The notes beneath the pieces were generated by a model that worked only from the letters and a program-made list of their open reading frames with translations, did no database searches and had not been told where the DNA came from. DNA of 48,696 bases. Source: Patescibacteria group bacterium (GTDB lineage: Bacteria > Patescibacteriota > Gracilibacteria > BD1-5 > UBA6164). The position numbers were made by a program, and so were the translations under genes. The DNA is taken from positions 1 through 48,696 of the forward strand of contig JAVHPF010000029.1 in assembly GCA_036170435.1 (NCBI GenBank), in the 5' to 3' direction. Below are positions 11,501-40,886 of this stretch, piece by piece; the first letter of the stretch is position 1, and every line of letters starts with the position of its first letter.

Positions 11501-14500
11501 TCTAATTCTGCAAATATATACTTAAAAGCTGATAGTATAAAAGATTCTTCTTATTCAAATATATCTTGTGCTAGTCCAGTTTCTTGAGTAACTTGTTCTT
11601 ATAGTGCCAATATTGCTACATATACTTTTTCAGCTTGAGCTTTAGCTAGTTTATGAAGTTGAGTAAAACAAGTACAATTTACAGCAGCAAATACTTCAGG
11701 AATAAATACTTGAACAACTTTAGCTTCGATTACCCTTGATAATACATCTCCTAGTGTTGCTAGTGATACTCTAACTGCTCCTATTTCTTGAACTATAGGT
11801 TGAACTAGCACAAATATTACTTGGACTCCTAGTAAAATAAGTGACAATATGTGAGTTTCTTATATAAAATTAGAATATTCTTCTGATTGAGGTTCTAACT
11901 GGAATCTTATTTCAACGTGAGCAAATTCTTGAACTTATCCATGGAATATTACAAGTTTAACTTCTTGATCTAATTACGAAGTAAAAATAAGTGCTTACGA
12001 TGTTGTTTGACAATCAAATTCTGCTATTTGAGGAATATTTGCAATAGACAAAGTTCCACCAACTGTTCCATCAAATACCATAACTTATCCAAGTAATACT
12101 TGAATAAAATTAAAATGATGAGCAAGTGTAAATATAACTTGGAATACATGATGAATTACAGATAATATAGGGCTTGCTACAAACCCAATAACTTTATACT
12201 ATTCAATTGATTGATGAACTAATTATATTCAAATTGCTACAAATCTAGCAAATAATTGAACATATACTTGGACTGTTCCAAGTTTAGATAATACTACAAT
12301 GAAAATAAAATTAGAAGCAAGCGATAATGTTGCTAATAAATCTTTTGATATATCTGATAATAATTTTGAAATTGATTCTACTGTTCCAGTATTAACAGTA
12401 ACTGAAGCTTGAAATGGATGAAATACTCCTCAAACAAATAAATATGTAAATAATTCTTGAATAGACTTAACTGCTACTATTACAGATAAAAATTTATCAG
12501 GATGAAATGCTACTTATTCTTTTTATAATGCAACAACTAGTACTTATTGGAATTGAACTAGCTATGTGTGATCAGAAGTTTATAATGCATTAACAAATAT
12601 TAATGCTGCATCTTATAATTTATCAAATACTATAAATCCTAGTATAACAAATTGAAATACATATAAATTAAAACTTAGAGCAAGTGATATTGTTTGAAAT
12701 AATTATACAATACCTGAAATAACTTATCAATGAGATACTGTTAATCCTATTGTTTGATTTACAAATTGAGCTACTATTTATTCTAGTTGAACTGTTCTTA
12801 TTGCTTGAACATCTAGTGATGCGAGCTCTTGAGTAGGTGCTGTAAAATTAGAAATAACAAATTGATCTAATTATTTTGATTGAAGTTCATTTCAATGATC
12901 TTTAACACAACTTGCAACTACTACAAGTAATTCTTATGCTAATTGGAATTATAATTTCACTATTCCTGGAATAGTGGCAGATTGAACTAGTATAAATGTA
13001 AAATCTATTGCTTATGATAAAGCTTATAAAACTCCAAATTTTTGATCTGGTAATATAAGTGTAATAAAAGATACTACTTGACCTGTAATTTCAACTTGAG
13101 TTATAACATATCCTGCTGGATGAGAATCTTTTAGATGAGGACAAAACATAAATATAACTTGGAATACTTGAGCAATAAGTGATGCTGTTTCTTGAATAGC
13201 TGCAAATTCTATATCTTTAGAATATTATAACTGAACTGCTTGGCTTCCTTTAGCTAGTGGTCTTCCAAACTCTTGATCTTATAACTGGAATATTGCAACT
13301 ATTGATTATAATAATGCAAAAATAAGAATTACAGCTACTGATAATGTATGAATTTCCACTTCTCAATTAAGTGCATGATTTTTAGTTGATAGTCTACCTC
13401 CTCATGTAAGTAATGTGGAAACTATGGATAATGATGCAAATGGGCAAGTTGATTGATTACTTGTTAGTTTCAGTGAACCTATAAAAGATAATTCAATAAA
13501 TACATCTAAATTTTCTATCTCAAATTGAATAAATATAACTTGAACTGGTACAGCTTGAATTACAGATGATAACCAATTGACTTTATATTTTACAAACACT
13601 TGATCTAGTAATTTTACTCCGACTTTGACTTATACATCATGAGCTGTAACCGATTTTGTTGGAAATAATCTTATTGCCTGAAATATGATATCAGTAGATA
13701 AAGTTGTTCCTAGAGCACAAAGTGTTCAAATTTTTGATACTAACTCAAATTGAAAACTAGATAAAATAGAAGTGACTATGAGCGAACCTCTTACGGCAAG
13801 TTCTGTAAATAATTGATGGACTATTAATAATGCTTATAATTGAATGAGTGTATCTTCAGTAAATACTTCATCAAATAAAATAAATTTAATACTAAATGAA
13901 TCTAGTGCATTTAATACAGCAACTGGCAATCTAGCACTTAGTTTAAATAATACAATTTATACTGATTTAGCTTGAAATTTAGCTTGAAATATAACATCTA
14001 CTCCTATAGAAGATAAAGCTAGTCCAGTTTTACTTAGTTCTAGTACAAGTGATAATAATTCAAATTATAAAGTTGATAAAGTAAATTTATTATTTAGTGA
14101 AAATATAGCAAATATAAATCCTAGTAATTTAAGTTTATCTTATTTATCTACTTGATCTAGTATATCTAGTTTAACTTGAACTGGAACTTCTACATTAAGT
14201 TTAAATTTAGCTGAAACTAGTAGTGATAATGATTCATCTTATAAACCAAATGTTATTTATAGTTGAACTTCATTAAAAGATTCATCAAATAATACTACGG
14301 CTAATTTCAACCTAGCAGTAACAGATTGAGTAAGCCCTAAAATAATTTCTAGAGAAACTCTTGATTCAAATAATAATGGGAAAGCTGATGCAGTTAAAAT
14401 AAATTTTAGTGAAAATATAAACTGAAATATTTCATCTACTCTTATTTGAGTGAATTCATATAACATAGCATCTTATGCTACTTGATCTAATTATATAATT

Positions 14501-16159
14501 GCAAATGTTGATGAAAAAGATGTAATTGATACATCAGTATTACTTGACTCAAAAATTATTTCAAATACTTCACTAAAAGATTCTGATTGAAATTTAGTAT
14601 TAGCTGAAGCTTGATATTCAACTTCGAGTGATAAAATGTGACCAGTTATATCATTTGCTAGATTTGATTCTATAGATAAATTATATCTTAGTTTTAGTGA
14701 AAATATTACAAATGCTAGCTTACTTGCTTCTGATTTTGTATTAACTTGAACTACAGCTAGTATAATATGAGTAAATTTCACTTCATGAACAAACTCAGCA
14801 ATATTAACTTTGAGTTCTTCTAATATAACATATTGAACATCAACTATAAGTTTTAAAACAAATACAGCTAGTGATTCTGCTTGAAATAAACAAACTAATC
14901 AAGTATTTGCTCGTATTAGTCCTAGTGTAGTAATAAATGAAGTTATGTACTCTAATACTAAAGCAAATCAATATATAGAACTTAGAAATATGTGAAATAC
15001 TTCTGTTTCTATGTCTGGATGGATTTTACAAAATGCTAGCAATTCTGGAACTACAAATTTAAGTCTTCCAGCTTGAGCTACGATTTGAGCTAATTGATAT
15101 TATCTGATAGTAAATTCTAATACTTCCCTATCAATATTATCTTGATCTATAAGTCCTAATTATATAACAAGTTCTTTGAGTTTAAATAGTTCAAGTCAAT
15201 CAAACATAGTTATTACTGATAATTTATGAGCTATCTATGATTCAGTTGTTTCATTTCCTTGGGCAGCATGAAATTCAGTTTCAAATATTTCTATGGAAAG
15301 AAAAAATGTTCCTTGAAATTGAACAGTTTGAACAAATTGGTATTCTGCAGTAGCTTCTGTTTGATTTGATGACTTAATACCTAAATGAACTCCTGGAACT
15401 GATAATAAAATAGATGTAACTCCTCCTGTTATTTGATCATTTACTCCTACAGAAAATACACTATTTCCTATTTGAGATAATGTAAATTTAACTTATAATT
15501 ATTCTGATGATATAGCTTGAGTTTCTACTGGAACATCAAATATAGTAATACAAAAATATAATTGAGTTAGTTTTGATACTTTAGTTTCTCAAATAGCTTC
15601 TAGTAATATAGGTACTACAAGTGCTAATTATACGCTTAATCATCTTAACTTTGGTAAATATAAAGCTGTTTTTACTATAGATGATAAAGCTGGAAATACC
15701 GTAACTCAAGTTATAAATTTCTATGTTGATAAAGTAGAATTTGTTGTATCAACTTGAAGTGTAGATATTTGAAGCGTAAAGGCTAATATCTGAAAATATG
15801 CTGTAGTTGAAGAATCTATAACAGTAAAAACTCTTTGAGCTGGATTTAATCTTTATAACTGAAAAGCTGGAGCATTAAGTAAATGATTAACAGATATTCC
15901 TGATTATTCTTGAGCTACAAATTATTGATTTGGTTTTGATTTATATAAAAATGAAAATTGAACAATAAGAGATTATAACTCAATAATAAATCCAGTAAAT
16001 AATACTATTGTTTGAAATATAACAAAAGATGTATCAAGTTCTGACTGAACTCAAAAAACATATTTTTATAAAATTAAATATTATGTAAGAGTTGATGATT
16101 TACAAGCTGCTTGAAATTATTCTACAAATGCAAATTTCAACTTAGTTCTGAATTATTAA
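8588..16159 (+). CDS. giant cell-surface protein with Ig-like repeat arrays and a lamin-tail domain (2523 aa)
   Basis: ATG 8588, TAA 16157-16159; continuous frame with no TAA/TAG, and roughly one codon in ten is TGA. Signal peptide MRKIFSFLTLFFLISNIVCS. ~100-aa repeats (ITWNTGGITDN...TYTWTVPSL...ASDNVAN; DNDANGQVDGLLVSFSEPI, DTNSNGKLDKIEVTMSEPL, etc.). LTD motif VVINEVMYSNTKANQYIELRNMGNTSVSMSGWIL at about 14927-15400. Confidence 0.85.
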
Positions 16160-19441: not shown

Positions 19442-20082
19442 TTACTTGAAATCTGCTAAGCAAATATCTTTTCAATCTATTATTAGTTTTTTACCATCAT
19501 ATTCTCAATTTTTTAATGGGTCTATGAAATCAGCTAAATTTCTAATTTATGAATTTAATTTTATATTTCATAAATTAGGGTCTATGGTTATATCTCAGAA
19601 AATGTTATGAGTATTAAAACTATAAAGATTCTCAAAATAAGTTCATAAATAATTAAATCTATCAATTACCATAGCTAATTCTTTCTCCTTCCCCATTGAA
19701 TCTACAAACATCACACTATTATTCCCAACATAACTATATAAATTTATATCATCAACTTGCCCAATTGGATCTCTTGATATAAATCTTCCAAGTTCTGCAG
19801 AATAATATCTTACTCTGTAATAATATAATCCTATTTCTTTATCAAATTCTCTTCCAGTAAATAATCTAGAATTATTTATTTTTGACTCTTTAAATTCTCT
19901 CCAATTATAACTTTTTCAATCTCTTATATAAGCTTTTCCAAAAACATAATATTTATCCCCCAAGAGGACGTCCTATGGGCGTACTCTTCTACTACTTTTC
20001 CTTTTTCATCTGTAATTGTAGTAATACTTCATAATTGGTTTTTAGTATAGTAATAAACTTTAAAATATTTTAATTTTACTTG
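19442..20082 (-). pseudogene. rhs: orphan Rhs core + C-terminal tip cassette 1, disrupted
   Basis: 19692-20062 is homologous to the main rhs core (22893-23237): NQLGSITTITDEKGKVVEEY ... GRFISRDPIGQVDDINLYSYVGNNSVMFVDSMG. A 26-nt GC-rich insert (19957-19982) shifts the frame, giving TAA at 19924-19926 in the upstream frame. The short tip ends at TAA 19547-19549; the same frame reopens until TAA 19442-19444. Confidence 0.75.
19957..19982. repeat. 26-nt GC-rich palindromic insertion (cccccaagaggacgtcctatgggcgt)
   Basis: Absent from both other rhs core copies, which read atttat|actcttc. Contains the perfect 10-nt palindrome aggacgtcct. Its length is not a multiple of 3. Confidence 0.8.
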
Positions 20083-20089: not shown

Positions 20090-20764
20090 TTAATTATCTA
20101 TATACCAAATCTTTTTCATAAATCAAAATCTAGATATTAATAAAAGAACTGATTGTTTTTTAGGAATTTCAGTTATAGCTTCTCAATAAATATCTGTAAG
20201 ACGGGTATCTTGTAATGAAATCCTTATTTGTTGCTGATTTTCTAATGTATTATAAGTTCATAAAATTAATGATTCATTTCATATTTTCCAATAATAGAAA
20301 GTAGTTCAAAACTTATTAAATGTATCAGGATTACCAAAAATTCAAGATAATTTTAATAATAATCATGAAAAAATAGAATAATTCCACTCTCAATTATTAT
20401 ATATACTTATTTTATCAACCGATAATAGAATTTTACCATTATCAAATTTCTTATTAGGTGGTATAGTTACAAAATTAAAGTATTTATTTGGAGTAATTTT
20501 AAATAATGGCTGGTAAATAAAATTTTCAAAAAAATCTAATTTAATATCTTTTTTAAAAGTTATAGATTTTTCTGGAGAATATAAATAAATATTATTATTT
20601 TCTGTGGGTATAAATAATACTGGTTCATCAATTGTATTATCTCAATAATATCAAAGAATTTTATTATTATAATAAATATATTCTCAAAATCAAATAGAAA
20701 ATATACTGTAAAACATCAAGATTAATGATAGTATAATAAGTCATTGTTTAATTATTTTTTTCAT
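20090..20764 (-). CDS. membrane-anchored protein in the rhs locus, possible accessory or orphan immunity (224 aa)
   Basis: ATG 20764, TAA 20090-20092, ends checked. N-terminal TM helix GLIILSLILMFYSIFSIGF. No recognisable domain. Confidence 0.5.
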
Positions 20765-20807
20765 AATTTTAAATAATTATCATAATTAAGAAAAAGACTA
20801 AAATATA

Positions 20808-21173
20808 CTATTTATATTCTATCTCTTTTATAAAATCAGTACTTCAATCTGAATTTTTATAATATATTTTATATATTCATTTTTTATCTAAATCAATAGA
20901 AATTTCATTTTTAGGATTAAGTAAAAATTTAAAAAACTTTGTATAAAATGATATATATATTTTTTCATCCTCAATTGAATATTCTATATCTGAAACTCAT
21001 ATAGATGAGTCTCAGATATATCAATTTATATATAAAATATTCTTAGTAGTACTAATCTCTAAAAATTTTCATCAATTGTTAACAAATGTTCATTTTGAAA
21101 TAGACATATTATATATTATTGATAATAATATCAGTAATATAATTATAATTATTATTGAAAAAAAAGTTTTCAT
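20808..21173 (-). CDS. putative Rhs immunity protein 2, N-terminal TM anchor (121 aa)
   Basis: ATG 21173, TAG 20808-20810, all codons checked. TM helix FFSIIIIIILLILLSIIY. Lies directly downstream of orphan toxin cassette 2. Confidence 0.6.
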
Positions 21174-21227
21174 TATTAATTAAGTTAATAATATAAATTT
21201 TAGCTGTTATAAATTAAATATATAGAT

Positions 21228-21983
21228 TTATAAATTATTTATTGAATCTGCAAGCGTATTAGGATTACTTATTCAAAAAGAATTCCTATCTTCTAACTTA
21301 TATTCAGATACAGTATTCCAAGCATCTGATGCCCAAGCACTACATGGATAAGCATATCCCCATTTAATATTATAAATACTATAATATATATAATCATTTA
21401 ATATTTCCATTTTATTTTTATCTAATTCAAGTTTTGCATATTCAAAATTATCATAATTTAAATATGTTTCTGGTCAATTTACTTGAATTCAATCACTTAC
21501 AGGATATTTTAAACTATCTCTATCTGGCCATAATCAATATGTAATTGTATGTCAATTTTTTGTTATTTCTATCCAGCTATGTCCTTCAATAAACGATTCA
21601 TTTCAACTACTTCATCTATCAGAGTATATCGTCAATATAGCTTTTTCTAAACCCATCGGATCAACAAACATCACACTATTATTCCCAACATAACTATATA
21701 AATTTATATCATCAACTTGTCCAATTGGATCTCTTGATATAAATCTTCATAAATCTGCTGAATAATATCTTGCTCTATAATAATATAATCCTGTTTCCTT
21801 ATCAAACTCTCTTCCAGTAAAAAGTCTTGTATTATCAATTTTACTTTCTTTAAACTCTCTCCAATTATCAGATTTTCAATCTCTTATGTAAGCTTTTCCA
21901 AAAACATCGTATTTATACTCTTCTACTACTTTTCCTTTTTCATCTGTAATTGCAGTAATACTTCATAATTGGTTTATTCTATT
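21228..21983 (-). CDS. rhs: orphan Rhs core + toxin-tip cassette 2 (251 codons open, no start codon at its 5' end)
   Basis: Open from the TAA at 21984-21986 down to TAA 21228-21230. 21652-21975 matches main rhs 22893-23216, including a 120-bp identical block. Carries ...RFISRDPIGQVDDINLYSYVGNNSVMFVDPMG then a divergent tip with GHSWIEITKNG...YPCSAWASDAWN. The first ATG/GTG lies just before DPMG. Confidence 0.75.
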
Positions 21984-22350
21984 TTACTTTTCAAAAACAA
22001 TATTCTCAATAATTATTTAAATAACACATCTCATATCAAATAAACTTTTTTGCCTCAAATAAATAATTATTTTCTAACTTATCTGTTGTATTTAAATATC
22101 TAAAATATAATTTCTTCTTATTTTCATCTTTTTCTAAATTTACTATACCATTATAGATATTTCCAGAATCACCCCAAAATGAAATATATGTTCAAGTTTG
22201 ATAAATACTTAAAAATTCAAAAGGTTTCATACTTTTATGATAACTATTAATTCGAAATATATAATATATCAATACTAATGCAAAAATTAATGTTATAGAT
22301 AAAAATATTATCATTATATATTTTATTATTTTATAAGTTTTATTTTTCAT
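21979..22350 (-). CDS. putative Rhs immunity protein 1, N-terminal TM anchor (123 aa)
   Basis: ATG 22350 lies 11 nt after the rhs stop. TAG 21979-21981, all codons checked. TM helix IIKYIMIIFLSITLIFALVLIYYIF. Confidence 0.65.
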
Positions 22351-22360
22351 TACAATTAAA

Positions 22361-25300
22361 TTAATAAATTAAATCTTTATATAAATCTGGTAATGAATAA
22401 GTTCATTGTCAATAACTAAGATTATTTATATTTGAATAATAATCTTTTGCATTATTTCTAAGAGATTCTATAGAGGTAGCTAATGAATCAGGATTACTTA
22501 CAAGACCATCATTTAAATAATTATCAGATACAGTATTCCATATATCAGTAGCAAAGTCACTACAAGGTGCAAATTCAGACCATTTAAGTCAATTACTAAT
22601 ATCTGAATTTATAGTATTAATTATAGTATCATACTGATATCAATTTATATATTCTCATATTGAAACTACATTATCATAATTAGCATAATTTCTATCTTTT
22701 TCTCTATTTTTTACTATATCTGAATTTTGGTTTATAGCATAAGTTGAATTTGACCAATTATTTCAAATTCAATATGAAGTAGTTTCTCAATTTATCGTTA
22801 ATTCTATCCAAGAATGTCAATCTATAAAAATATATGGATTTTCATACCAAGAATAAATTGTAATTTTTCATACTATCAAACTCTTTTCCTTCCCCATCGG
22901 ATCAACAAACATCACACTATTATTCCCAACATAACTATATAAGTTTATATCATCAACTTGTCCAATTGGATCTCTTGATATAAATCTTCAAAGTTCAGCA
23001 GAATAATATCTTGCTCTGTAATAATATAATCATATTTCCTTATCAAATTCTCTTCCAGTAAACAATCTATCATTATTTATTTTTGAGTCTTTAAAATCTC
23101 TCCAATTATCAGATTTTCAATCTCTTATGTAAGCTTTTCCAAAAACATCGTATTTATACTCTTCTACTACTTTTCCTTTTTCATCTGTAATTGCAGTAAT
23201 ACTTCATAATTGGTTTTTAGTATAGTAATAAACTTTAGATTTTCAATCTTTTGTTATAATACTTGCTAAAATATCATCAATAGTGTTTGAATAAATATTT
23301 TCTTTTGTTTCTTCTAGTTTCAATTTATCTTTTTCTTGTTCAAAAATTTCTTCAACTATTGCATTATTTCAAGCATAAGTATATTTTACCACTTTGTTTT
23401 CATTTTTATCTTTATCATCTTCATAAACTATTTTTTCTAGTCTTCTTCATAAAGTATCATAAGAATATTTTGCAATAATTTCACTATTTTTATATTTTTG
23501 ATTTTTTCCTTTTATTCCCTCGCCTATAAGGAGAGGGTTAGGGTGAGGTATTTCTAATTCTTCTACTTTTACTAATCTATTTCTATAATCATAGAAATAT
23601 TTTTGTTTATTATCTTGTATAAGATTTCAGTTATTATCATAAACGAAATTTTCATTTTTCTTTTCAATATTTGTTTGAGTATATTGATTCAGTTCATTGG
23701 TAATATAATCAACATTTGTAATATCTTTTTTTCAAGATTTTCAAACTGTTTTTTCTTCTGTTAATTGAGAACTTGTTCTATTTCAAATATTATCATAAAC
23801 AAACTCTTCTTTTCTCCCTTTTTCAAAGGGAGAACCCGAAGGGGGAGGGATTATTTGACTTGATATTAATCTTGAAATTTCATCATAATTATAGTTTTCA
23901 AGTCAATTTGATTTAATATTTCAAATATTATCGTATGAAAAAGTTAAACTATTTATAATATTTTCTTGTGTTGAAGTATTTTTTCATTTTTTAAGTTCTT
24001 CAATAGAAATATTTTTTAATTCTTGTAATCTTCATAGATTATCATAAGAATAGTTTGTTTTGGTAGTATTTCCATTGATTTGATTTACTAATTCTAATCA
24101 AGAATAATTATAGTCTATATTTATTCCTTTTGTTCCCTCGCCTGCAAGCATAACTGAGACAGGAGTGCTTGCACGACTATCTTCGAAGTTAGAGCGAAGC
24201 AGAGGGTTAGGGTGAGGTGTATTTATATTTTTAAGTCTATTTATCTCATCATAAGATTTTGTTACTACTTTTCAACTTGGATAGATTAGTTTTACTTGAT
24301 TTCAATTAAAATCGTATTCGTAGTTAATTGTTTTTCAATTATTTGTTTCACTTGTAAGTTGGTTAAGCGAATTATATACGAAACTTGTTTCAATAGTTTT
24401 TCATTCATTATCTATACTTTTTGAGTTTATTAATCTTCATAAATCATCATAAATATAGTTTTCTTTTATAGTTCAGATTATTCAAGTAGAATTTGAAATA
24501 TTTCTTTCTACTAATCTATTTAGAAAATCAAAAGTATTTGAGATAATATTCCCGTTTGGATCAGTTTTTTTAACTACATTACCTAGTGAATCATATTCAT
24601 AATTTATTTGTTTTGTATCACTATAGATTTCTTTTTTAAGTCTATTAAATAAGTCATAAACATAAGTAGTTTTATTTCAATTTCAATCAATAATTGCTAT
24701 TAAGTTTCAGTTTATATCATATTCAAATTTTGTTTCAATATTTTTTCAATTTATATATTGAATCTTTTTTGTAACTTTTCAAAGATAATTATATTCTAAA
24801 TCTGTTTTATTTCAGTTTTTGTCTAGAACTCTTGTGATTTGATTTAAAGAATTGTAAATATATCATTTCAGAACATCATTATCTGATTTTTCTCAAATAA
24901 GTCTATTATCTTTGTCATAAAAATAATATGTATTTAGAATTTTTCAAATATTACTTATAATTGATTTTTTAGTAATATTATCATTTTTATCATATTCAAA
25001 AGTTTGTTTATTTCATAGAGAATCTATTATAGAAAGACTTCTTCAAAATATATCATAATTAAGACTTGTTTTATTTCCTGAATTTTCTATTTTTTCAACT
25101 AAAAGTCATTTATTATAAATATAATTTGTAGTAATTTGAGTATTTGATTCTATATTATAGATAATTTCTTTTGTAGTATTTCCAAGTAAATCATAAATTT
25201 TTTCTTGTTTTGATAAAAGTTTATTTTCTTTGTTAAATACTTCAATTTTTATAACATTTCAAGAAACATCATAAGTTAAATTTGTAATGTTTCCTAATTC

Positions 25301-28108
25301 ATCTGTTATTTTAGTAACTTGATTAAATAAATCATATTTTAGAGTTTTTGAATTTCATTTAGCATCAATAATTTTTGTAATATTTCAAGCATTATCGTAT
25401 TCATATTTCGTTTCAATTCATTCAAAAATAGTTTTTATTACTTTATCAAATTCATTATAGAAAAATTCTTTTACAGCTCAATTTGGATAAGTAATTTTTT
25501 TGATATTTTCATTATTATCGTATTCAAATTTTGTTTTAGAATTTAAATCTTTTGAAATAGGATTATTTATTTCAGAAATTTTATCTAAAATATCATAAGT
25601 TTTTGAGACATTTACATCATTATTATCAACTTTTTCAGATTGTTTTATATTATTTCCATTCAAATCATATTCAAAAGAATTTATAACTCACTCCGGACTA
25701 ATAGTTTTTATTATCTGATTAAATTTATTATAATTTATACTTTTTGTATTTCAATTTGCATCTGTTACAGATAAAATATTTCAAGCATTATCATAAGTAA
25801 AACTTGTATCAATAGTATCTGAAAATATAGCAAGTAATGATGAATCTTTTTTTGATATTTTTACTAAATTTCCATTTTGATATTCTAAACTAGTTTTTAA
25901 TCAATTTGGATTTATAGTTTTTACAAGTTGTCATAAATTATCATATTCATAGCTTGTTTCTAGAATTTCATCTCAATTAAAAATTTTTTTATTTATTACA
26001 TTTCATTTTTCATTAAGATTATTTTCTATAATAAGTCCGTTTGATTTTGTTATTTTTATTGGAGTTTCAAAATTTCATTCGTATTCGTATCTTGAGATTT
26101 TCTCATATTCTCAGATTTCTTTTTGTATAAGGAGTCTTCATAAAGAATCATAAGAATATTCTATAATTTTTCAGTTTGGATTAATATCTTTTGTAAGTCT
26201 TCCATTTTCATCATATTCATATTTGAATTCTACAATTCAATTATTTGTTTCTACTTTTCTTGAAATAGTATTTCAATTTATATCAAAAGAATACTCTGTT
26301 TTTACTCAATTTCTATTTATTACATTATTTTTTATTACTTTTCAATTTTCATTGCTAGTATATGTATAATTTACTGTTCAATTTCAATATTTTTGACTAA
26401 TTACTCTGTCCGATTCATCATATGTATTTTCTACATAAGTTTGTAATTTTGAATCAATTAGTTTTGATATATTATGATTTAATTTTTCATTTGCATTTCA
26501 AGAAATATATTCAAATTTGATTTCTTTTAAACTTCAATTTTTTCAAGTTTTTATACTTACTAAATCATTATTAGAGTCATAAATAAAATCTATTTCATCA
26601 TTATTTGAAGTAGTAATTTTTACAAGTCTAGAATCAGCATTATAAATATAGTTTATTTCTTTTCATAAAGTATCTATAGTTTTAATTAGTTTTTTATCTG
26701 CATCATAGTAGTAAGATAAGGCATTTCCATTTTTATCTTCTATTTTTGATATTTTATTTATATCATTAAAATAATATTTTTTTCAGTTATCAAATACTAT
26801 TTTATATAATTCATTTTCTTTTGATAAAGTTGCTCTTGAAGATAAATTATAGCTATTTTCTCAATTAAATTTTGAAATAGAAAATAATCAATTATGTAAA
26901 TCGATTATATTATCATCATTTTTTGAAATATATATATTTTGATTATGATCAAAATTAAATCAAAGTGGTCAATTATAATATACTTGATTTGAGTATTTTA
27001 TATCCAAATCATAATTTAAATTTAATCATTTTAAAGATAATAATTTATTCAAATAATCAAATTCTCAATTAGAAATATTTACTGGATCCACAGTATCTTG
27101 TGAATTATTAGATAGATTAGATGAGTTATTTATGAAATCATTATTTAATCCTATTATTCAATTATTATAATATGTATAATCTCAATTATCTGGTAGTTGA
27201 GGTAGATCTATTGGAGGTATATCATTTGTAAAAATAAGACAATTTTTATCCACTCAATGCATCCAATGTCAAGATACTATTCATTTATCAATTATTAAAT
27301 TATTAATATTTCATTTTTTTTCTTTAACTTTTAATCCTTCCCATCAACAAAAAACAGAATTTCATAAATCTGTATCAAATGACAAATGTCATTCTATTTT
27401 ATCAAAAGATTCATATATATTTTTTTCTTTAGTTTTAAGATTATATATTCACCATCATTGTAAATATGAAGAATCTTCATTATAATCAAATGTTTTATAG
27501 TATAATGTATCTAAATTTTCATCCACCCAAAAAAATCAATTCCATGTAACTTCCCGACTTTTTCAAAAAAGATGTTCAGAAATTCAATTTTTGTAAATAT
27601 CAAATCAACTATTAGAAAGTTTAATAGTACTTCATTTATAAGGCTGGATAGATTGTCAATACATTCATCAAATAGTTTTCCGATAATTATCAATTGAAAT
27701 ATCATTTGATCACCAATAGGATGTTCATGGTATGTTGTGAAATTCTAAAGCTGTTATAGAAATTGCAGGAGTATTATAATTATCATTAATATTTTTTTTA
27801 AAATAATACATATCAGTTGGAACTATTTTAAAATAACTCCAATAAACATAATCTCATTGTTTTTTAAATGCAACAGGTTGATTTAAAGATGTTATAGAAG
27901 ATTCAAAAACTTCTTTTTCCCCATCCTTATTTATTTTCATTATTTTTCATGTTGTCCGGTCATTATCATTATCAATTGTAGAATCAACATAAATAACAAC
28001 ATAATCACTATTATTTATATTTGTTGCTAAAGCACTATTATAAAATAATGGAGAAAATAATATCCCTAAAAATAGTATTTTCTTAAATATCACATTTTTT
28101 ATTTTCAT
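22361..28108 (-). CDS. rhs: Rhs/YD-repeat polymorphic toxin (1915 aa)
   Basis: ATG 28108, TAA 22361-22363. Signal-like N-terminus MKIKNVIFKKILFLGILFSPLFYNSALA. Dozens of YD repeats (YEYDENGRLT, YEYDNLGQLV, YTYDNAGNIL, YEYDSLGNVV; Gly mostly TGA). Core end YYYRARYYSAELGRFISRDPIGQVDDINLYSYVGNNSVMFVDPMG. About 178-aa C-terminal tip. In frame with track ORF 25478-25663. Confidence 0.9.
22893..23237. repeat. rhs core repeat, master copy (other copies at 21652-21975 and 19692-20062)
   Basis: Three direct copies of the last ~110 core codons. 23097-23216 is base-for-base identical to 21856-21975. Confidence 0.9.
23517..23549 (-). repeat. GC-rich palindromic element A, in frame inside rhs
   Basis: ccctcgcc-tataagg-agagggttagggtgaggt in an otherwise AT-rich ORF. 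Stem CCCTC.CC/GG.GAGGG. Translated as PHPNPLLIGEG. Confidence 0.75.
23814..23850 (-). repeat. GC-rich palindromic element B, in frame inside rhs
   Basis: Sense strand tccctcccccttcgggttctccctttgaaaaagggag. Hairpins ccc-ttcg-ggg and tcccttt-gaa-aaaggga. Translated IPPPSGSPFEKGRKEE. Related copies at 29392-29438 and 29865-29910. Confidence 0.75.
24135..24219 (-). repeat. GC-rich element A carrying a nested 57-nt palindromic insert, in frame inside rhs
   Basis: Same ends as 23517-23549 (ccctcgcc ... agagggttagggtgaggt), but the loop is replaced by tgcaagca...tgcttgca and cttcg...cgaag inverted repeats. Translated PHPNPLLRSNFEDSRASTPVSVMLAGEG. Confidence 0.75.
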
Positions 28109-28210
28109 AAAACAAAACATTAAAGAATTAAAAATGATAAGAATATCTTATCATTTTTATATTTTACATATCAAATATTAATTTTTTATTAACAAATAAA
28201 AGATTTTTAA

Positions 28211-28332: not shown

Positions 28333-28452
28333 ATATTTAGTGCTGGCTTATTATATAAAAAAATAGAGAAAGTCAAAGTTTTTTTAGTAAATTAATTGAA
28401 AAGTTTGCTTTTTTGGATATAAGTATAGTAATTAAAAATAAGTAATAAAAAA

Positions 28453-29859
28453 ATGAAAATAAGTATTTTTGGTACTGGATATGTATGACTAGTTAGTTGA
28501 GCCTGTTTATCAGAATTATGACACGAAGTAATGTGTATTGATATTGATGAAAAAAAGATAGAAAATCTGAAAAAATGAATAATTCCCATTTATGAGCCAG
28601 AACTTGATGAACTTGTTAAAAGGAATTATAAACAAGGTAGGTTATCATTTTCTACTAATATTCCTGAGTGAATAAAATTTGGGAAAGCTATTTTTTCAGC
28701 TGTCGGAACTCCTCCAGATAAAGAAAATAATAATAAGGCTGACTTAAAATATGTTGAAGAAGTAGCTAAAACTTTTGGTGAGAATATAAGTGAATATAAA
28801 CTTTTCATAAACAAATCAACTGTTCCAGTAGGAACTGGAAAAAGATGTAGAGATATAATCAAAAAAGAAATTCAAAAAAGAGGAAAAGATATAGAATTTG
28901 ATGTTGCATCAAATCCAGAATTTCTTAGAGAATGAAGTGCTATATATGATTTTTTAAATCCTGATAGAGTAGTTTGCTGAGTACAAAACGAAAAAGCTAA
29001 ACAAATAATGGAAGAGATTTACAAACCTCTAGCAAACAAAACTGAAATCATAATAACTGATATTGCTTCAGCAGAAATAATCAAATATGCAGCAAACGCA
29101 TTCCTCGCTACAAAAATCAGTTTCATCAATGAAATAGCAAATTTTGCGGAAAAAGTAGGATGAAATATTTGAGATATAAGCAAGTGAATATGAGCGGATA
29201 ATAGAATCGGAAATAAATTCCTAGAATCTGGAATCGGTTATGGTTGATCTTGTTTTCCGAAAGATATAAAAGCTTTTATAGAAACTTGAAAAGACTTCGA
29301 TCACGAATTCAAAATAATCAGAGAGACTGAAAATGTAAATGAAAGACAAAAAACTATAGTTATTGATAAATTGATAGAATCGATGGAATCCATCCCTTCT
29401 CCATTACATTCCGAAGGACTTCCTTTGGAAAAGGAAGAAATTAATGAATCACAACTATTAAAATGAAAAACTATTTCTATCTGGTGACTCGCTTTTAAAC
29501 CGAATACTGATGATATTAGAGAAGCTCCAAGTATTTCAGTAATAAATAGATTACTTGAACTTTGAGTAGAACAAATTAAGACTTTTGATCCGGCTTGTAT
29601 GACTCATATGGAAGGAGTATTTAGAGAAAATAGTGAAGTAGTATTTTGTGAAACTAATTACCTGGCTTTAGAAGATAGTGATGCTCTAATAGTTCTAACT
29701 GAATGGAATGAATTCAAAATTCCAGATATAAAAAGAATTAGAAAATCTATGAAATGAAATATTATAATAGATGGTAGAAATATTTGGGCAGATGAAAATC
29801 TAATTGATGAATGATTTATATACAAATCTATATGAAAAGTCTCTAAGAAACATTTATAG
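28453..29859 (+). CDS. ugd: UDP-glucose 6-dehydrogenase (468 aa)
   Basis: [32 protein letters not shown] (Rossmann motif, three of its Gly are TGA). Catalytic-site GIGYGGSCFPKD at 29230-29265 (TGA 29245-29247). [18 protein letters not shown] 29857-29859. About 20 extra residues at 29392-29438. Confidence 0.9.
29392..29438 (+). repeat. probable element-B copy inserted in frame in ugd
   Basis: atcccttctccattacattccgaaggacttcctttggaaaaggaaga, GC-richer than its surroundings. Hairpin ttccttt-gga-aaaggaa. Translated [16 protein letters not shown], in the same phase as the rhs copy (IPPPSGSPFEKG). Confidence 0.5.
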
Positions 29860-29864
29860 GAAAA

Positions 29865-29910
29865 TCCCTCCCCCCCCTTCGGGTACTTCGCCTTTCTAAA
29901 AAGGGAGAAA
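29865..29910 (+). repeat. element-B copy, intergenic
   Basis: tccctccccccccttcgggtacttcgcctttctaaaaagggagaaa begins 6 nt after the ugd stop and aligns with the rhs copy (reverse complement of 23814-23850). Confidence 0.7.
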
Positions 29911-29911
29911 T

Positions 29912-30024
29912 AGAACAAATCCCCCGGTCTACGACCACCCCCTTAATAAGGGGGACAAGAGTAAAATAAAAAAGTCCCCCTTATTAAGGGGGTGGCTGAG
30001 GAATGAAGCCGGGGGATTTGTTCT
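29912..30024. repeat. 113-nt nested GC-rich palindrome (MITE-like or structured RNA/terminator)
   Basis: Outer perfect 16-bp inverted repeat agaacaaatcccccgg (29912-29927) / ccgggggatttgttct (30009-30024). Inner perfect 22-bp inverted repeat ccacccccttaataagggggac (29935-29956) / gtcccccttattaagggggtgg (29974-29995). Each inner arm is itself a CCCCC-TTAATAA-GGGGG hairpin. Confidence 0.85.
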
Positions 30025-30052
30025 CTAAAATTTATAATTTTAACAAAAACTT

Positions 30053-31009
30053 ATGAAATTAATAATACAAATTCCTTGTTTTAATGAAGAAAAAACTCTG
30101 CTTTCAGTTCTAGAAGAATTACCTACTCAAATAGATGGAGTAGATGAAATTGAAACTATGATTATTGATGATGGGTCTAGTGATAAAACTATAGAAGTGG
30201 CTACTAAATTTGGAGTTGATTATATAGTTAAACATATTGGAAATAAAGGGCTTGGGAATTCATTTAAATCTTGAGTTCATAAAGCACTTTTAGAATGAGC
30301 TGATATTTTGGTAAATACTGATTGAGATAATCAATATCCAAGTAAATTTATTCCAGACTTAATAAAACCTATTTTGGAAGGAAAAGCTGATTTTGTTATG
30401 TGAAATAGACAAACTAAAAAAATCTCTCATTTTTCATTTTTGAAGAAATTTTTTCAATGGCTTGGATCTGCTATGGTAAGATATTTATCAGGAACAAATA
30501 TTCCGGATAGTGTTAGCTGATTTAGAGCTTATTCTAAGGAAGCATTATTAAAACTAAATGTAACTTCTGATTTTTCTTATGCTGTTGATACACTTATTCA
30601 AGCTGGTAGAAAAAGAATCAAAATAGTTGATGTTGATATTACTACAAACAGACCAACAAGACCTTCAAGATTATTCAAAAATATGTGGCATCACATGTAT
30701 AAAACTACTCAAATTATGATTAGAGTTTATGCAATGTATAATCCAATGAGAATATTTTTTGCTCTTGGAACTCCATTTTTGGTTTTAGGATTAATAGGAC
30801 TTTCTAGATTTATGTATTTTTATATGATGAATCCTGTTGATACTGGCAAAATCCAATCGCTTGTTATTTCTGGAGTTTTCTTAATGATTGCTATACAATT
30901 TTATGCTCTTGGAATAATCTGAGATTTGATAGCTAAAAATAGAAGACTTATAGAAGATGATTTGTATCTAACAAAAAAACAATATTACGAAAAAAATAAA
31001 TGATATTAA
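30053..31009 (+). CDS. GT2-family polyprenyl-phosphate glycosyltransferase (DPM1/GtrB-like) with two C-terminal TM helices (318 aa)
   Basis: MKLIIQIPCFNEEKTL...IIDDGSSDKT...NTDGDNQYP. Track ORFs 30053-30274 and 30683-30922 are in one frame, joined through TGA codons. TAA 31007-31009. Confidence 0.8.
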
Positions 31010-31010
31010 G

Positions 31011-31044
31011 AAAAAAGACTGGGAAAAAATTCCTAGTCTTTTTT
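31011..31044 (+). terminator. rho-independent terminator after the GT2 gene
   Basis: aaaaaagact-gggaa-aaaa-ttcct-agtctttttt, about a 15-bp stem ending in a T-run. Confidence 0.7.
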
Positions 31045-31110
31045 GAAATAAAGTTTGATTTTAGTTAATCTTAAATATAATTAATTTAATTAAATTTAAA
31101 ATATATAAAT

Positions 31111-31329
31111 ATGGCTACAATATTATCAAAAAAAGACTTCAAAATTATTTGATTTAATGCTAAAAATTCAGAAAAAATTATTATTGAGCTTGATCAAAAA
31201 ACTTTGGATTGATTAATTTGAACAAAAAAAAGAATAATTAAAAAACCTGAAGATATGAGTCTAAGAGAATATATAAAATCATGAGAAATCTATAATCCTA
31301 ATAATATAGTTTGAACTTATAATAATATA
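31111..31329 (+). CDS. putative antitoxin of the RelE/YafQ-like pair (72 aa)
   Basis: Small ORF (ATG 31111, TAA 31327-31329) 27 nt upstream of a RelE-family toxin. The family itself is not recognisable. Confidence 0.45.
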
Positions 31330-31356
31330 AATGATTTAATCTTAAGTTTAAATTAA

Positions 31357-31627
31357 TATGATTTTTAAAAAACACAAAACTTTTGAAAAAAATTATAAAA
31401 AATTAAATGCTAAATTAAAAAGCAAAGTAAATGAAACATTAATTTTATTTTCAAAAGATCATTTCAATAAAAAATTAAACAATCATTGATTAATCTGAGA
31501 TTTTAAATGACTTAGAAGTATAAATGCTACTTGAGATTATAGAATAATTTTTAGAGAACTTTCAAATAATACATACGAAATAATAGAATTACTAAAAGTA
31601 TGAACTCATTCTGAATTATATAAATAA
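31357..31627 (+). pseudogene. RelE/YafQ-family mRNA-interferase toxin, split by a +1 frameshift
   Basis: Frame 1 (31357-31569): MIFKKHKTFEKNYKKL...NNHGLIGDFKGLRSINATGDYRIIFRELFK*. The conserved C-terminus SNNTYEIIELLKVGTHSELYK* is in the +1 frame (31562-31627). The switch point is the tttt run at 31559-31562. Confidence 0.75.
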
Positions 31628-31630
31628 ATA

Positions 31631-31679
31631 TAACTATTAAAAAAGACTAAATTTAAAATTTAGTCTTTTTTAATAGTTA
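31631..31679. terminator. bidirectional terminator, 23-bp perfect hairpin
   Basis: taactattaaaaaagactaaatt / aatttagtcttttttaatagtta with a 3-nt loop, between convergent genes. It contains the epimerase stop codon. Confidence 0.8.
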
Positions 31680-32469
31680 TTTCAAAATTACTCTCTTCCC
31701 CACTTTTCAAAATCATAGGATTATCAAGCAAGGCTTGTTCATCTCAATAAACTGGTTCGATACAGATAAAATCTTTCCCTATTTCTGACCGGATCCAAAG
31801 CTTCTTATATGAAGAATCATAGTTTAATTCCATAGTTTTTCAGTCTGGAAAAACTATTTTTATATTTCCTGGATTATCTAGATAAACAGTTTCTCAGTTT
31901 ACAAAACTATAGTCATCTAGAATTTTTTCTCATAAATATATTTTTAAATTCTCTTTATCTTCATTTTTCACGAAATAATATGGATGTAATCCTATTCGCG
32001 ATGGTAAATCTTGATTTCAAGTATTTATAATTTTTTGAATAATTTTAACTACTTTTGAAGCGATATCTTTTTGAGGAACGATATCCTTTTTAGGAACGAT
32101 GCAATCGTTCCCTACGGAGATTTCTCGTATCATTTCAATTCTGAAATCAAAAGGAAAAATTTCTTTTGACTCTCTATCTGATTCTAAATACATTTTTAAA
32201 CTAGTACCCGTTATTTTCTCATATTGCCAAGGCTTATTTCTAGCAAATCAATGTTGAGATAGATTATAAAGAGAGTTTTCTCTAAGTGGTCAAGCATTTG
32301 GAAACATAACAGGAATCCCTCCTCTTACGTTTTTTTCCAAATTATGAAGTGTTTCCTCATTTAGGAAAAGTATCTCTTCAGAAGCTAATTTAATAGATGT
32401 AATTAATCATCATCTTTCTGGGATACAAGATATAGAAGTAGTGTTTTGTGAGATTGTATGTATTTGCAT
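31660..32469 (-). CDS. aldose 1-epimerase (galactose-mutarotase-like) family protein (269 aa)
   Basis: VRGGIPVMFPNAGPL...QHGFARNKPW...GLHPYF...CIEPV. ATG 32469, TAA 31660-31662, ends checked. Contains an in-frame 18-nt tandem repeat at 32057-32119. Confidence 0.7.
32057..32119. repeat. in-frame 18-nt tandem repeat (~3 units) plus 19-nt palindrome inside the epimerase gene
   Basis: gaagcgatatctttttgag / gaacgatatcctttttag / gaacgatgcaatcgttcc. The last unit is the perfect hairpin ggaacgat-gca-atcgttcc. Translated NDCIVPKK-DIVPQK-DIASKV. Confidence 0.8.
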
Positions 32470-32472
32470 AAA
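32432..32472. repeat. 41-bp direct repeat A (second copy 33779-33819)
   Basis: atagaagtagtgttttgtgagattgtatgtatttgcataaa versus atagaagtagtattttgtgagattgtgttgatttgcataaa, 37/41 identical. Copy A holds the real epimerase start; copy A' encodes a 13-codon remnant MQINTISQNTTSI*. Confidence 0.85.
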
Positions 32473-32524
32473 AAAGTTTAGTTAATTAATACTATTATAG
32501 TTTTAATAATAAGTTTGATTTTAT

Positions 32525-32542
32525 CAAGTTTTTTGCTATAAA
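32525..32542. repeat. 18-bp direct repeat B (second copy 33756-33773)
   Basis: caagttttttgctataaa is identical at both sites. The second copy overlaps the 3' arm and T-run of the fic terminator. Confidence 0.8.
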
Positions 32543-32563
32543 TAGGAGAGTTATAAATAAAAA

Positions 32564-33637
32564 ATGACAATTAATAAAAGTATGAAAAAATTACCTCTAA
32601 ATCATAATTTTTTGAAGCCTGAAATAATTAAGAAATTAATACGAGCACATAAAGCCCTTGCCGAACTTAATTGATTATCTCATAAAATTCCAAATCAAAA
32701 TATTTTGATAAATTCTCTTTCTTTACAAGAAGCAAAAGACAGTAGTGAAATAGAGAATATAATAACAACTCATGATGAACTTTATAAGTCCCAAATTGAT
32801 AAAAGTTTTCTATCAACTCAAACAAAAGAAGTTGCAAATTATAAAGAAGCTTTACTTTTGGGTTTTGATATAGTCAAAAAAAATAAACTGCTTTTAAATA
32901 GAGATATTTTAGAAATTCAAGAAATTTTAGAAAAAAATGATGCAGGATTTAGAACTCAAATTTGAACAAAACTAAAAAATGATCAAACTGGAGAAACTAT
33001 ATATACTCCGCCTCAAAATATAGAAGAAATAAAAGATTTAATGACTAATTTAGAAAAATATATAAATGAAGATTTAGAAGATATTGATCCACTTATTAAA
33101 ATGGCAATAATTCACCATCAATTTGAATCAATTCACCCATTTTATGACTGAAATTGAAGAACTTGAAGAATTATAAATATTTTATATTTAGTGAAAAATG
33201 ATTTACTTAATATGCCGATTTTATATCTTAGTAATTATATTATTAAACATAAATCAGATTATTATAGATTATTACAAGAAGTAAGAGAAAAATGAAATTG
33301 GGATGAATGGATTTTGTATATGCTTGATGCAATAGAAAAAACTTCACTTGATACTATGGAGATGATAAAATCTATTTGGGATTTGATGTGAAAAACAAAA
33401 AAATCCATGAAAGAAAAGATTCCAAAAACATATTCTAAAGATTTACTTGAAATAATTTTTTCCCATCCATATACAAAAATAGATTTTTTAGTTGCTGGAA
33501 TGTGAATTACTAGGAAGACTTCAGCAAAATATTTACAAGAAATGGTAGATAATTGATATATGATAGTAATTCAAATATGAAAACATAAATATTTTGTAAA
33601 TATAGAATTATTTGAAAGATTAAAAAAATGATTATAA
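32564..33637 (+). CDS. fic: class II Fic-family AMP-transferase with Fic_N region and C-terminal wHTH-like tail (357 aa)
   Basis: Fic motif HPFYDGNGRTGR at 33134-33169, with all three Gly encoded by TGA. N-terminal inhibitory motif SSEIEN, i.e. (S/T)xxxE(G/N). In frame with track ORF 32705-32965. TAA 33635-33637. Confidence 0.9.
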
Positions 33638-33713
33638 AAAATTCCCATGAAAAATAGTTCATGAGTAAAAAAATCTAAAAATTACCCATGAAAAATAACT
33701 CATGAGTAAAAAA
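33636..33713. repeat. two tandem ~41-nt units with internal palindromes downstream of fic
   Basis: aaaaattcccatgaaaaatagttcatgagtaaaaaaa / aaaaattacccatgaaaaataactcatgagtaaaaaa. The second unit contains the 10-nt palindrome actcatgagt. Confidence 0.75.
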
Positions 33714-33765
33714 CTTGAAAAATATAACATTACCCAATAGTAATGTTATATTTTTCAAGTTTTTT
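33714..33765 (+). terminator. fic terminator, 20-bp perfect hairpin plus T-run
   Basis: cttgaaaaatataacattac / gtaatgttatatttttcaag, loop ccaata, then tttttt. Confidence 0.8.
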
Positions 33766-33821
33766 GCTATAAAATTATATAGAAGTAGTATTTTGTGAGA
33801 TTGTGTTGATTTGCATAAATA

Positions 33822-34547: not shown

Positions 34548-34550
34548 TTT

Positions 34551-34922
34551 TTATTTAAAGTTAAATTTATGATTCATAAAGAAATTCCAAGCAAAAATAA
34601 TGATTTTATTAAAAATTGCAACTCGCATATAATTAAATCAAAATTTATCTACCAAAATCCAAAGAAGTAGTAAATTAACTACAAGTCATACAAGTTGGAA
34701 AATAAGAAATAGAAATCATTGGACAATATGTTTTCTTTTTTTGCATCAAAATGTTATATATTTCTGAAAGAAAAATCACACAAAAAAGGCTATACAAAAA
34801 GATAATATAGCCGAATAGATATAATAAATTCAAGCTATATCTGTAAAAATCCAAAGGAAGAATAAATCTGTAACTGCTCATATTCACCCTCAAATTCAAT
34901 ATTTTAATATTTTTTTAATCAT
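34551..34922 (-). CDS. GtrA-family membrane protein (123 aa)
   Basis: MIKKILKYGIGGGIGAVTDLFFLWIFTD...SAILSFCIAFFVGFFFQKYITF...IIFAWNFFMNHKFNF. All codons checked. The track ORF 34675-34899 is in a different frame. Confidence 0.8.
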
Positions 34923-36940: not shown

Positions 36941-36943
36941 ATT

Positions 36944-37942: not shown

Positions 37943-37988
37943 AAAAAAATAGTTTAATTATATATTTTATTTGATAAAATAATCAAAT

Positions 37989-38657: not shown

Positions 38658-38661
38658 AGTT

Positions 38662-39267: not shown

Positions 39268-39269
39268 AA

Positions 39270-40844: not shown

Positions 40845-40886
40845 TTATTATTTTTAAGTTAAATATTTTATAAAAAATCACACATT

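Follow-up and report, generated by a model that had tools for sequence, protein, structure and literature searches.

A short repeat of Escherichia coli, familiar from cyanobacteria as well, that was named first BoxC (Bachellier), then PIT, for potential intrastrand triplex (Hoyne & Maher 2000), and also TMECO (Holder et al. 2015, PMC4666352) was recognised some 30 years ago and ranks among the most widely conserved short repeats of prokaryotes, with no established function or mode of spread. Twenty-three TMECO motifs are tabulated for E. coli K-12, in which such TM motifs are 'always located intergenically' and are associated with local genomic instability (Holder et al. 2015, PMC4666352); for the related archaeal motifs, likewise, only intergenic copies have been reported. 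The motif forms a triplex as single-stranded DNA in vitro, and none was detected in vivo in E. coli (PMC4666352). PIT elements show neither promoter nor terminator activity in E. coli, nor any effect on RNA polymerase. Here, I describe small GC-rich hairpin repeats (about 26-95 nt), one family of which matches BoxC/PIT/TM by its sequence, that were probably inserted in the rhs gene of an AT-rich, TGA = Gly genome, that of a Patescibacteria group bacterium (Gracilibacteria, within the candidate phyla radiation, CPR). The stretch analysed, called the window hereafter, comprises the 48,696 nucleotides of contig JAVHPF010000029.1 (assembly GCA_036170435.1, positions 1 to 48,696 of the forward strand).

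Palindromic repeats lying in frame in many unrelated genes have been described in Rickettsia (Rickettsia palindromic elements, RPEs; Ogata et al. 2000, 2002, summarised in PMC10969869), and the repetitive extragenic palindromes known as REP and REPIN are mobilised by RAYT transposases of the HUH/Y1 type (PMC3116915). Both the BoxC/PIT/TM family and the in-frame palindromes of Rickettsia are therefore already known. What appears to be new is the presence of BoxC/TM inside genes, on a fixed strand and in a fixed phase, together with sister families in housekeeping and toxin genes of CPR bacteria that use genetic code 25; no description of either was found in the literature searched, the coverage of which was incomplete.

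The window has a GC content of 23-24%. Open reading frames (ORFs) of at least 150 aa cover 2% of it under translation table 11, as against 97% under table 4/25. TGA accounts for 101 of the 131 glycine codons of the rhs ORF and falls on the conserved G of the YDxxG(R/N) repeat, for which reason the window is read with genetic code 25 (TGA = Gly), as in Gracilibacteria and Absconditabacteria. The main rhs gene occupies an open frame at 22364-28147 on the minus strand. Its product, which matches the Pfam family RHS_repeat (E = 7e-90) and has homologues carrying PF05593 and PF25023, is composed of a signal peptide, YD repeats, the core RFISRDPIG...VDPMG (the DPIG...VDPMG motif) and a C-terminal tip with no Pfam match; the repeats, the C-terminal core RFISRDPIGQVDDINLYSYVGNNSVMFVDPMG and two orphans with other tips characterise it as an Rhs/YD-repeat toxin. 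A small downstream ORF (21982-22368, minus strand, no Pfam match) is a possible immunity gene and, with the two orphans, completes the usual layout of an Rhs locus; the ORFs between the orphans (20811-21179 and 20093-20776, minus strand) had no Pfam match either. The rhs genes and the elements inside the main one, designated A1, A2 and B, are as follows.

22361-28108, minus strand: main rhs gene, 1915 aa with TGA = Gly (ATG at 28106-28108, TAA at 22361-22363)
23507-23549 (core 23517-23549), minus strand: A1, BoxC/PIT/TM motif by sequence, a 14-aa gap in homologues
23809-23852, minus strand: B, AATCCCTCCCCC-TTCGGGT-TCTCCCTTT-GAA-AAAGGGAGA-AAAG, with a 10-bp hairpin
24125-24218 (core 24135-24218), minus strand: A2, the motif of A1 with the first loop expanded to 58 nt
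24143-24200, minus strand: the 58-nt loop-1 segment of A2, with the hairpins CTTCG/CGAAG and TGCAAGCA/TGCTTGCA
21231-21983, minus strand: rhs orphan 1, C-terminal core and an alternative tip, the empty-site reference for insertion C (see below)
about 19550-20045, minus strand: rhs orphan 2, C-terminal core and a third tip, carrying insertion C

A preliminary description of this DNA had reported three GC-rich islands that interrupt the rhs frame without breaking it, and so they do, within a single open frame. In composition the three inserts are foreign to rhs: taken together they have 51% GC against 21% in the rest of the ORF, and 36% against 8% at third codon positions. Their glycine codons are 6 GGN and no TGA, those of the remaining ORF 24 GGN and 101 TGA (Fisher p = 9.5e-5), and the codons CAC, AAC, CTC and GGN, by which they are spelled, are atypical for a genome otherwise using AT-ending codons and TGA. 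Each insert lies 6-9 residues past the RL of a YDxxxRL repeat; a predicted junction between host protein and insert reads, for example, ...LKNINTPHPNPLLR... The RNA is predicted to fold into hairpins, as had been expected (-11.7, -26.1 and -15.9 kcal/mol for A1, A2 and B, respectively), with z-scores that are modest (-2.7, -2.9 and -1.6).

On the sense strand A1 reads ACCTCACCC-TAA-CCCTCTCC-TTATA-GGCGAGGG, followed by the tail AATAAAAGGA, and translates as IPHPNPLLIGEG, or (I)PHPNPLLIGEGIKG with its flank; the peptide of A2 is TPHPNPLLRSNFEDSRASTPVSVMLAGEGTKG (TPHPNPLL...AGEG). The ends that A1 and A2 were said to have in common, translated as PHPNPLL...GEG, are indeed exact (CCCTCGCC and AGAGGGTTAGGGTGAGGT), except that A2 ends at 24218 and not at 24219, and a 17-mer common to both occurs twice in the window and in none of 100 dinucleotide shuffles. 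In A2 a 58-nt segment stands in place of the 7 nt CCTTATA of A1, both lengths being 1 mod 3, and it holds the two extra inverted repeats from which one element had been taken to be nested inside another. The inverted repeats stand, and nesting is plausible rather than established, no second copy of the segment being present in any fetched locus. Loop expansion of this kind recurs in family A, since five other members (L093, L020, L089, L092 and L113, in the numbering of the fetched loci) have first loops expanded by an extra hairpin of 21-36 nt. The third island, B, translates as IIPPPSGSPFEKGRKE (IIPPPSGSPFEKGRKEE); its limits, formerly 23814-23850, are here refined to 23809-23852.

The ten closest Rhs homologues (38-52% identity), the nearest among 5.8 billion proteins searched, lack A1 and A2, the former appearing as a 14-aa gap and the latter as a clean 29-aa gap; the same alignment is indecisive for B because the length of the loop in question varies among homologues. 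One homologue, P0004, was modelled (pLDDT 85, pTM 0.85) and the insert sites were transferred onto it through the alignment. The A2 site coincides with a two-residue turn between strands 213-218 and 221-228, the A1 site with a turn between strands 418-426 and 432-442, and the B site with a 14-residue low-confidence loop (312-325). The sites lie at beta-hairpin turns or in a disordered loop of the model and would fit tolerated loops, whether these face inward or outward.

Family A is neither new nor peculiar to its lineage. Judging from its sequence, it appears to be the pan-prokaryotic BoxC/PIT/TM motif of TMECO type 'A mm'. The latter is built as CCCTCGCCCC-TTT-GGGGAGAGGG-TTA-GGGTGAGGGG (PMC4666352), and the plus strand of A1 as CCCTCGCC-TATAA-GGAGAGGG-TTA-GGGTGAGG, that is, a pyrimidine block, a complementary purine block and a mirror block, with a G mismatch in the stem identical to that of 'A mm' and the same TTA second loop. 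The stem of A1 pairs at 7 of 8 positions and, by inspection, all 8 of the triads that its third block makes with the second block reversed are of an allowed kind; in B, about 7 of 10 triads fit the triplex scheme. The sequence GGAGAGGGTTAGGGTGAGG, which includes the TTA loop, is common to family A and 13 entries of the E. coli K-12 table, and CCTCACCCTAACCCTCTCC was confirmed in the hrpB-mrcB spacer of E. coli MG1655. Folded as DNA with ViennaRNA, which predicts the hairpin part only, the family A motif reaches -6.9 kcal/mol (z = -2.8).

Family A resembles BoxC/PIT/TM further in being multi-copy and dispersed, with conserved stems and variable loops, in the occurrence of inverted pairs (compare the D pair of the window, below), and in its rarity on phages and plasmids. 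It differs in having blocks of 8 nt, against 9-10 nt in E. coli, and in its present host, a CPR bacterium with a 23%-GC genome in which TGA = Gly. The loops of A1 (5 and 3 nt) agree with the 1-6 nt of the ITxF definition, unlike the 58-nt first loop of A2. The most conspicuous difference concerns location: the copies of E. coli K-12 are intergenic, whereas A1, A2 and 13 further copies lie inside ORFs, in frame, on a fixed strand and in a near-fixed phase. Family A is nevertheless kept in BoxC/PIT/TM because intergenic location is a descriptive and not a structural feature of that family.

A search for further copies, scanning one genome per species with the 18-mer ACCTCACCCTAACCCTCT, found family A in unrelated genes and in intergenic DNA of at least 119 genome stretches. 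Their hosts, with a GC content of 0.23-0.73, include Enterobacter, Erwinia, Acinetobacter, Pseudomonas, many Cyanobacteria, Melainabacteria, Bacteroidota, Ignavibacteria, Verrucomicrobiota, one Methanomethylophilaceae archaeon and at least 9 CPR lineages, Gracilibacteria among them. When genome, metagenome and viral scans are pooled, there are 207 distinct instances of the 18-mer from many phyla (GC 0.20-0.73), with stems kept and loops varying; in 168 of the 207 the 3' arm, CCCTCTCC-loop-GGAGAGGG-(A/G)A, follows within 30 nt, and the flanks around the copies are neither conserved nor duplicated. A 25-mer with the CCTTAKA loop of the Gracilibacteria copies was found in 84 metagenome stretches, some 17 of them from AT-rich contigs in which TGA is recoded, as judged by coding density under table 11 and by GC content. 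Elsewhere, the majority of copies lie between genes and are oriented either way with respect to their neighbours. With copies in other genes and other genomes, and with close homologues devoid of A1 and A2, family A is neither unique to this rhs gene nor conserved throughout Rhs proteins.

Every match of the 18-mer inside a long ORF was checked against Pfam. This leaves at least 15 independent in-ORF events, namely A1, A2 and those in 13 other Pfam-verified genes, all in frame:

recoded contigs: UvrC, ApbE, a GalE-like epimerase, FemAB and an HI0933-like flavoprotein
Gottesmanbacteria: an FAD-binding flavoprotein
five cyanobacteria: one orthologous Ser/Thr kinase, counted as a single event
Gastranaerophilales: a helicase
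Uhrbacteria: XseA
Chroococcus: a DUF4915-GNAT protein
metagenome-assembled genome (MAG) 'bacterium isolate USDV_maxbin.175': a MiaB-like enzyme
Melainabacteria: CoaBC
Bacteroidales: RimO

In seven of the nine genes that have the motif inside the matched domain, the stretch matched is 9-15 residues longer than the Pfam profile, which is what an insert would produce. The C-rich strand is the sense strand in 15 of 15 events and the phase is the one translated as PHPNPLL in 14, the remaining event using LTLTLS. The preliminary description had suggested looking for such a bias, which proves to be marked (p = 2e-6 against the three frames open under the standard code, p = 5e-4 against the two open frames of the C-rich strand). 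The third frame of the C-rich strand, which contains TAA, is never used by in-ORF copies. Such a preference may stem from selection on the peptide (a turn rich in Pro, Gly and Asn, as opposed to hydrophobic or Arg-rich alternatives), from selection against G-rich mRNA or from a bias of insertion. At two loci, L127 and L139, the same in-frame copies are present in independent assemblies from two samples.

Some of these loci display additional features. The ApbE gene of L127 (metagenome contig Ga0208544_10000552) has a second, variant copy near its N-terminus, SPPTPLLTGEGS, in a phase identical to that of its PHPNPLLIGEG copy. Two of the cyanobacterial Ser/Thr kinases (L008, 4558-4605, and L043, 7583-7630) carry a tandem duplication of the 5' half of the motif, with a period of 30 nt, and so read PHPNPLL twice; the three related kinases have a single PHPNPLL copy at that site. 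Matches at L160 and L108, where the motif stands before the likely start codon or at it, were rejected as in-ORF copies and left uncounted. Where TGA is recoded, the motif is open in its reverse frame as well (RRGLGGG, TGA = Gly); in the one case examined, that of L160 (metagenome contig LGVF01441612.1), the motif stands upstream of an endonuclease III gene, and use of the reverse frame is left unconfirmed because it precedes the likely start.

Family A is not the only repeat of this kind in the window. B represents, as had been proposed, a second family, one that is TM-like, and C and D are further ones; together with two genes of another Gracilibacteria MAG (contig JBBILU010000041.1, L058), they are listed here.

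29391-29441, plus strand: B-like, AT-decayed copy in ugd, in frame and in the phase of rhs B (IPSPL...EKEE)
29863-29911, plus strand: intergenic B copy, directly 3' of the ugd stop codon
29916-30020, no strand assigned: two D elements as an inverted pair, CAAATCCCCC-small hairpin-CCCCCTTAATAAGGGGGA, intergenic
19957-19982, minus strand: C, a 26-nt GC-rich hairpin insertion, ACGCCCATAGGACGTCCTCTTGGGGG, in rhs orphan 2
55-2178 of L058, minus strand: uvrC
about 5650-7800 of L058, plus strand: uvrB

B has three copies in the window (rhs, ugd and intergenic) and relatives in two other recoded AT-rich contigs, recovered by short-query BLAST, which upholds its status as a family; against the homologues it does not appear as a clean insertion. 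The sequence CCCTCCCCCTTCGGGT, allowing at most 2 mismatches, occurs twice in the window with 0 expected, and a degenerate B pattern gave 0 matches in JGI metagenomes and 0 in the 119 loci. In ugd (UDP-glucose 6-dehydrogenase, 28432-29856) the B-like copy is placed in the linker joining the central Pfam domain to the C-terminal one, a linker presumably about 20 residues longer than in typical enzymes such as E. coli Ugd. The D pair forms a palindrome of about 105 nt with an RNA folding energy of -75.8 kcal/mol (z = -11). Altogether, the spacer after ugd (29863-30020) is packed with GC hairpins, its sole Rfam match being a weak chance one to a Plasmodium RNA family.

Members of the D family are found in frame in uvrC and uvrB of the Gracilibacteria MAG (NPPAFGIPLIKGD). 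Each of these two genes has three or four in-frame GC-rich islands from several families, with the peptides PHPNPLLIGEG, NP[PS]AFGIPLIKGD, SLL[AT]KEG and PIPNPFPPGEKG, and the inserts of uvrB add more than 100 residues to the protein. Since uvrB and uvrC carry several families, the colonisation of genes by several GC hairpins looks like a general trait of these genomes rather than a peculiarity of rhs.

A case in point for mobility is C, which is absent from main rhs and from orphan 1 even though the flanking sequences match almost perfectly for more than 200 nt. A TA stands on either side of it, the target is not duplicated, and the insertion breaks the frame of orphan 2, a fragment without a start codon of its own. 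Five plus three of its bases are complementary to its own 5' flank, which may be a weak hint of fold-back synthesis or a product of chance. No C was found in IMG/VR or in any fetched locus. In the window it is C alone whose mobility is directly shown; for A and B mobility would follow by extension. The proposal that hairpin repeats colonise ORFs and are tolerated as loops between YD repeats accordingly stands as regards the copies in unrelated genes and the turn sites, and is qualified as regards movement of A and B.

I therefore consider it likely that the islands of rhs are small inserted repeats. Inside genes, these elements are kept only where the frame stays open. They would be transcribed and translated with rhs, forming loops of 11-29 aa, rich in Pro and Gly, where the beta-hairpins of the YD shell turn, presumably contributing nothing specific to Rhs function, and they may persist because the shell tolerates loop insertions. 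Copies that break the frame or are badly oriented would be purged from expressed genes, the frame-breaking C surviving in a silent orphan. As to how they were inserted, their very small size and hairpin form, together with the clean entry of 26 nt that left the target unduplicated, suggest that the substrate was a hairpin of single-stranded DNA, handled perhaps by a trans-acting HUH/Y1-type enzyme, as for REP/REPIN, or used in template switching at the replication fork; this is a guess. Cut-and-paste movement in the manner of a miniature inverted-repeat transposable element does not agree with the evidence, there being no target duplication at C, no conserved or duplicated flanks around the 207 family A copies, hardly any copies on phages and plasmids and no insertion sequence in the ORFs scanned. 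The element ends lack GTAG, and no RAYT-like Pfam match was found among the ORFs scanned in these 48.7 kb of the genome.

Several observations weigh against this interpretation. No transposase or other trans-acting gene was found in the part of the window's ORFs that was scanned, and mobile elements seldom carry the motif (0 of 50,697 GenBank phages, 6 IMG/VR contigs and 22 plasmid records, many of the latter resembling large replicons or chromosome-size records). The site of B is a loop whose length varies in all homologues, and B need not be a simple insertion. No rhs allele above 52% identity was available, so that no empty site was seen for A1, A2 and B and their boundaries are known to within a few residues. 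The evidence for translation of the inserts consists of the conservation of frame. Finally, of the five elements that the window has inside ORFs, four fall in DNA homologous to rhs, which makes up about 16% of coding DNA (p ~0.003, post hoc), and this could mean something more specific than tolerance.

A bolder version of the preferred reading holds that BoxC/TM hairpins, together with B, C and D, are active, ultra-small mobile DNA that crosses phyla, inserts through single-stranded hairpins without duplicating its target and routinely colonises uvrB, uvrC, ugd and rhs of recoded CPR bacteria as translated palindromes. It is advanced tentatively, as a possibility somewhat short of probable. 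If true, the contrast between GC-rich element and AT-rich host would provide the first nucleotide-exact insertion boundaries for a repeat unexplained since the 1990s.

That clustering in rhs is also the starting point of the alternative that fares best, although I regard it as unlikely: the elements might be hot spots at the DNA level, triplexes or cruciforms that stall replication forks and so aid the exchange of rhs tips or the diversification of the shell. It would agree with the genomic instability linked to TM motifs in E. coli (Holder et al. 2015) and with the presence of two orphans at the rhs locus. However, A1, A2 and B lie 300-1000 nt upstream of the region common to the orphans and are therefore unable to guide tip exchange, and C lies inside the common region, where any recombinant including it would be frameshifted. 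Moreover, the motif also occurs in housekeeping genes that have no need for variation, the triplex has escaped detection in vivo in E. coli, and the post hoc enrichment in rhs is explained equally well by a tolerant, non-essential repeat protein.

Quite improbable is a role of the hairpins in the mRNA, as pausing sites for the ribosome at YD turns, in aid of co-translational folding or export, or, like REP hairpins, as protection of the long AT-rich transcript against nucleases. Hairpins of -12 to -26 kcal/mol are stable against their AT-rich surroundings, all in-ORF copies have one strand orientation, and the three rhs inserts take up equivalent positions in the repeat, as such a role would lead one to expect. 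Yet the z-scores range from -1.6 to -2.9 only, the closest Rhs homologues do without the inserts, the copies outside ORFs, which are the majority, occur in either orientation, and PIT lacks any promoter, terminator or polymerase effect in E. coli.

There is very little, likewise, to recommend the idea that the inserts go untranslated, being bypassed by the ribosome in the manner of the 'byp' elements of Magnusiomyces or removed from the RNA. It draws on the analogy of GC-rich hairpins in the genes of an AT-rich genome with an altered code, and on the frame broken by C (26 nt). Skipping would leave length, frame and stop-free reading unselected, whereas the copies in expressed genes are all in frame, 14 of 15 in one frame and never in the one with TAA; C, for its part, sits in the orphan fragment that lacks a start codon. 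Hardly more credible is the notion that the islands are ordinary Pro/Gly-rich loop sequence of this lineage or an assembly artefact, for, even if Pro and Gly require GC-rich codons and B lies in a loop variable in all homologues, an identical 18-mer with its hairpin recurs in unrelated genes and spacers of hundreds of genomes across phyla, E. coli K-12 included, the synonymous choices are atypical for the genome, stems are kept while loops vary, and independent assemblies agree at L127 and L139; for A it is ruled out by the cross-phylum copies and by the homologues without A1 and A2.

Taken as inserted repeats, the elements invite comparison with systems other than BoxC. They resemble RPEs in behaviour, not in lineage: both are inserted in frame in unrelated ORFs, encode a conserved peptide, occupy permissive sites compatible with the fold and comprise several families per genome. 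RPEs, however, measure about 100-150 bp and are described as families 1-10 of Rickettsia, whereas the present elements measure 26-95 nt, belong to code-25 CPR bacteria, are GC-rich in an AT-rich genome and include a family, A, common to phyla and domains; by description the two are thus set apart. With REP/REPIN they have in common that those, too, are GC-rich hairpins of 20-40 nt, often in inverted pairs, non-autonomous and without target-site duplication, and a single-strand mechanism specific for hairpins would fit the clean insertion of C. REPs differ in being extragenic, species-specific and tied to a resident RAYT gene, whereas family A is identical across phyla.

The SDR4-6 elements of Nostoc, reportedly described by Elhai and colleagues in 2008, are said to be 21-27 nt long, to lie within genes and within each other, and to have been inferred to be mobile; they are not known to encode a protein. 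They are very small, like the present elements, differ from them in sequence and were described for heterocystous cyanobacteria. Short GC-rich hairpins also invade genes of very AT-rich organellar genomes with variant codes. Examples are the GC clusters in var1 of Saccharomyces mitochondria and the byp elements in mitochondrial genes of Magnusiomyces, which, in an account attributed to Lang and colleagues from 2014, are reportedly skipped by the ribosome and need not keep the frame. Apart from being organellar, both are unrelated in sequence, and it is the present elements that conserve frame and phase.

A unit of 40 nt, then, has come to lie repeatedly inside genes of CPR bacteria, Cyanobacteria, Melainabacteria and Bacteroidota, in one preferred phase. 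For genome annotation this means that the recurrent PHPNPLL/GEG peptides of CPR and cyanobacterial proteins are loops derived from a repeat and not conserved protein motifs. As regards mechanism, genomes of 20-25% GC offer a handle, for in them the elements are visible base by base and the rhs paralogues supply filled and empty sites.

Rfam, searched over the whole window at gathering thresholds and over 19-31 kb at E <= 1, returned a tRNA-Gln and the chance match mentioned above, leaving the elements uncovered. Elsewhere in the window, on the plus strand, a 1053-aa predicted surface protein contains a run of 15 glycines (6674-6718) in which TGA and GGN codons are mixed, and an ORF of 2523 aa (8576-16156), with a signal peptide and a repetitive Ser/Thr/Asn-rich sequence, probably encodes a giant surface protein. 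A long series of minus-strand ORFs extends from 30044 to 48593. The first four, at 30-34 kb, gave Pfam matches to a family-2 glycosyltransferase, an aldose epimerase-like protein and a Fic protein, and the rest resemble, by eye, a gene cluster for cell-surface polysaccharide.

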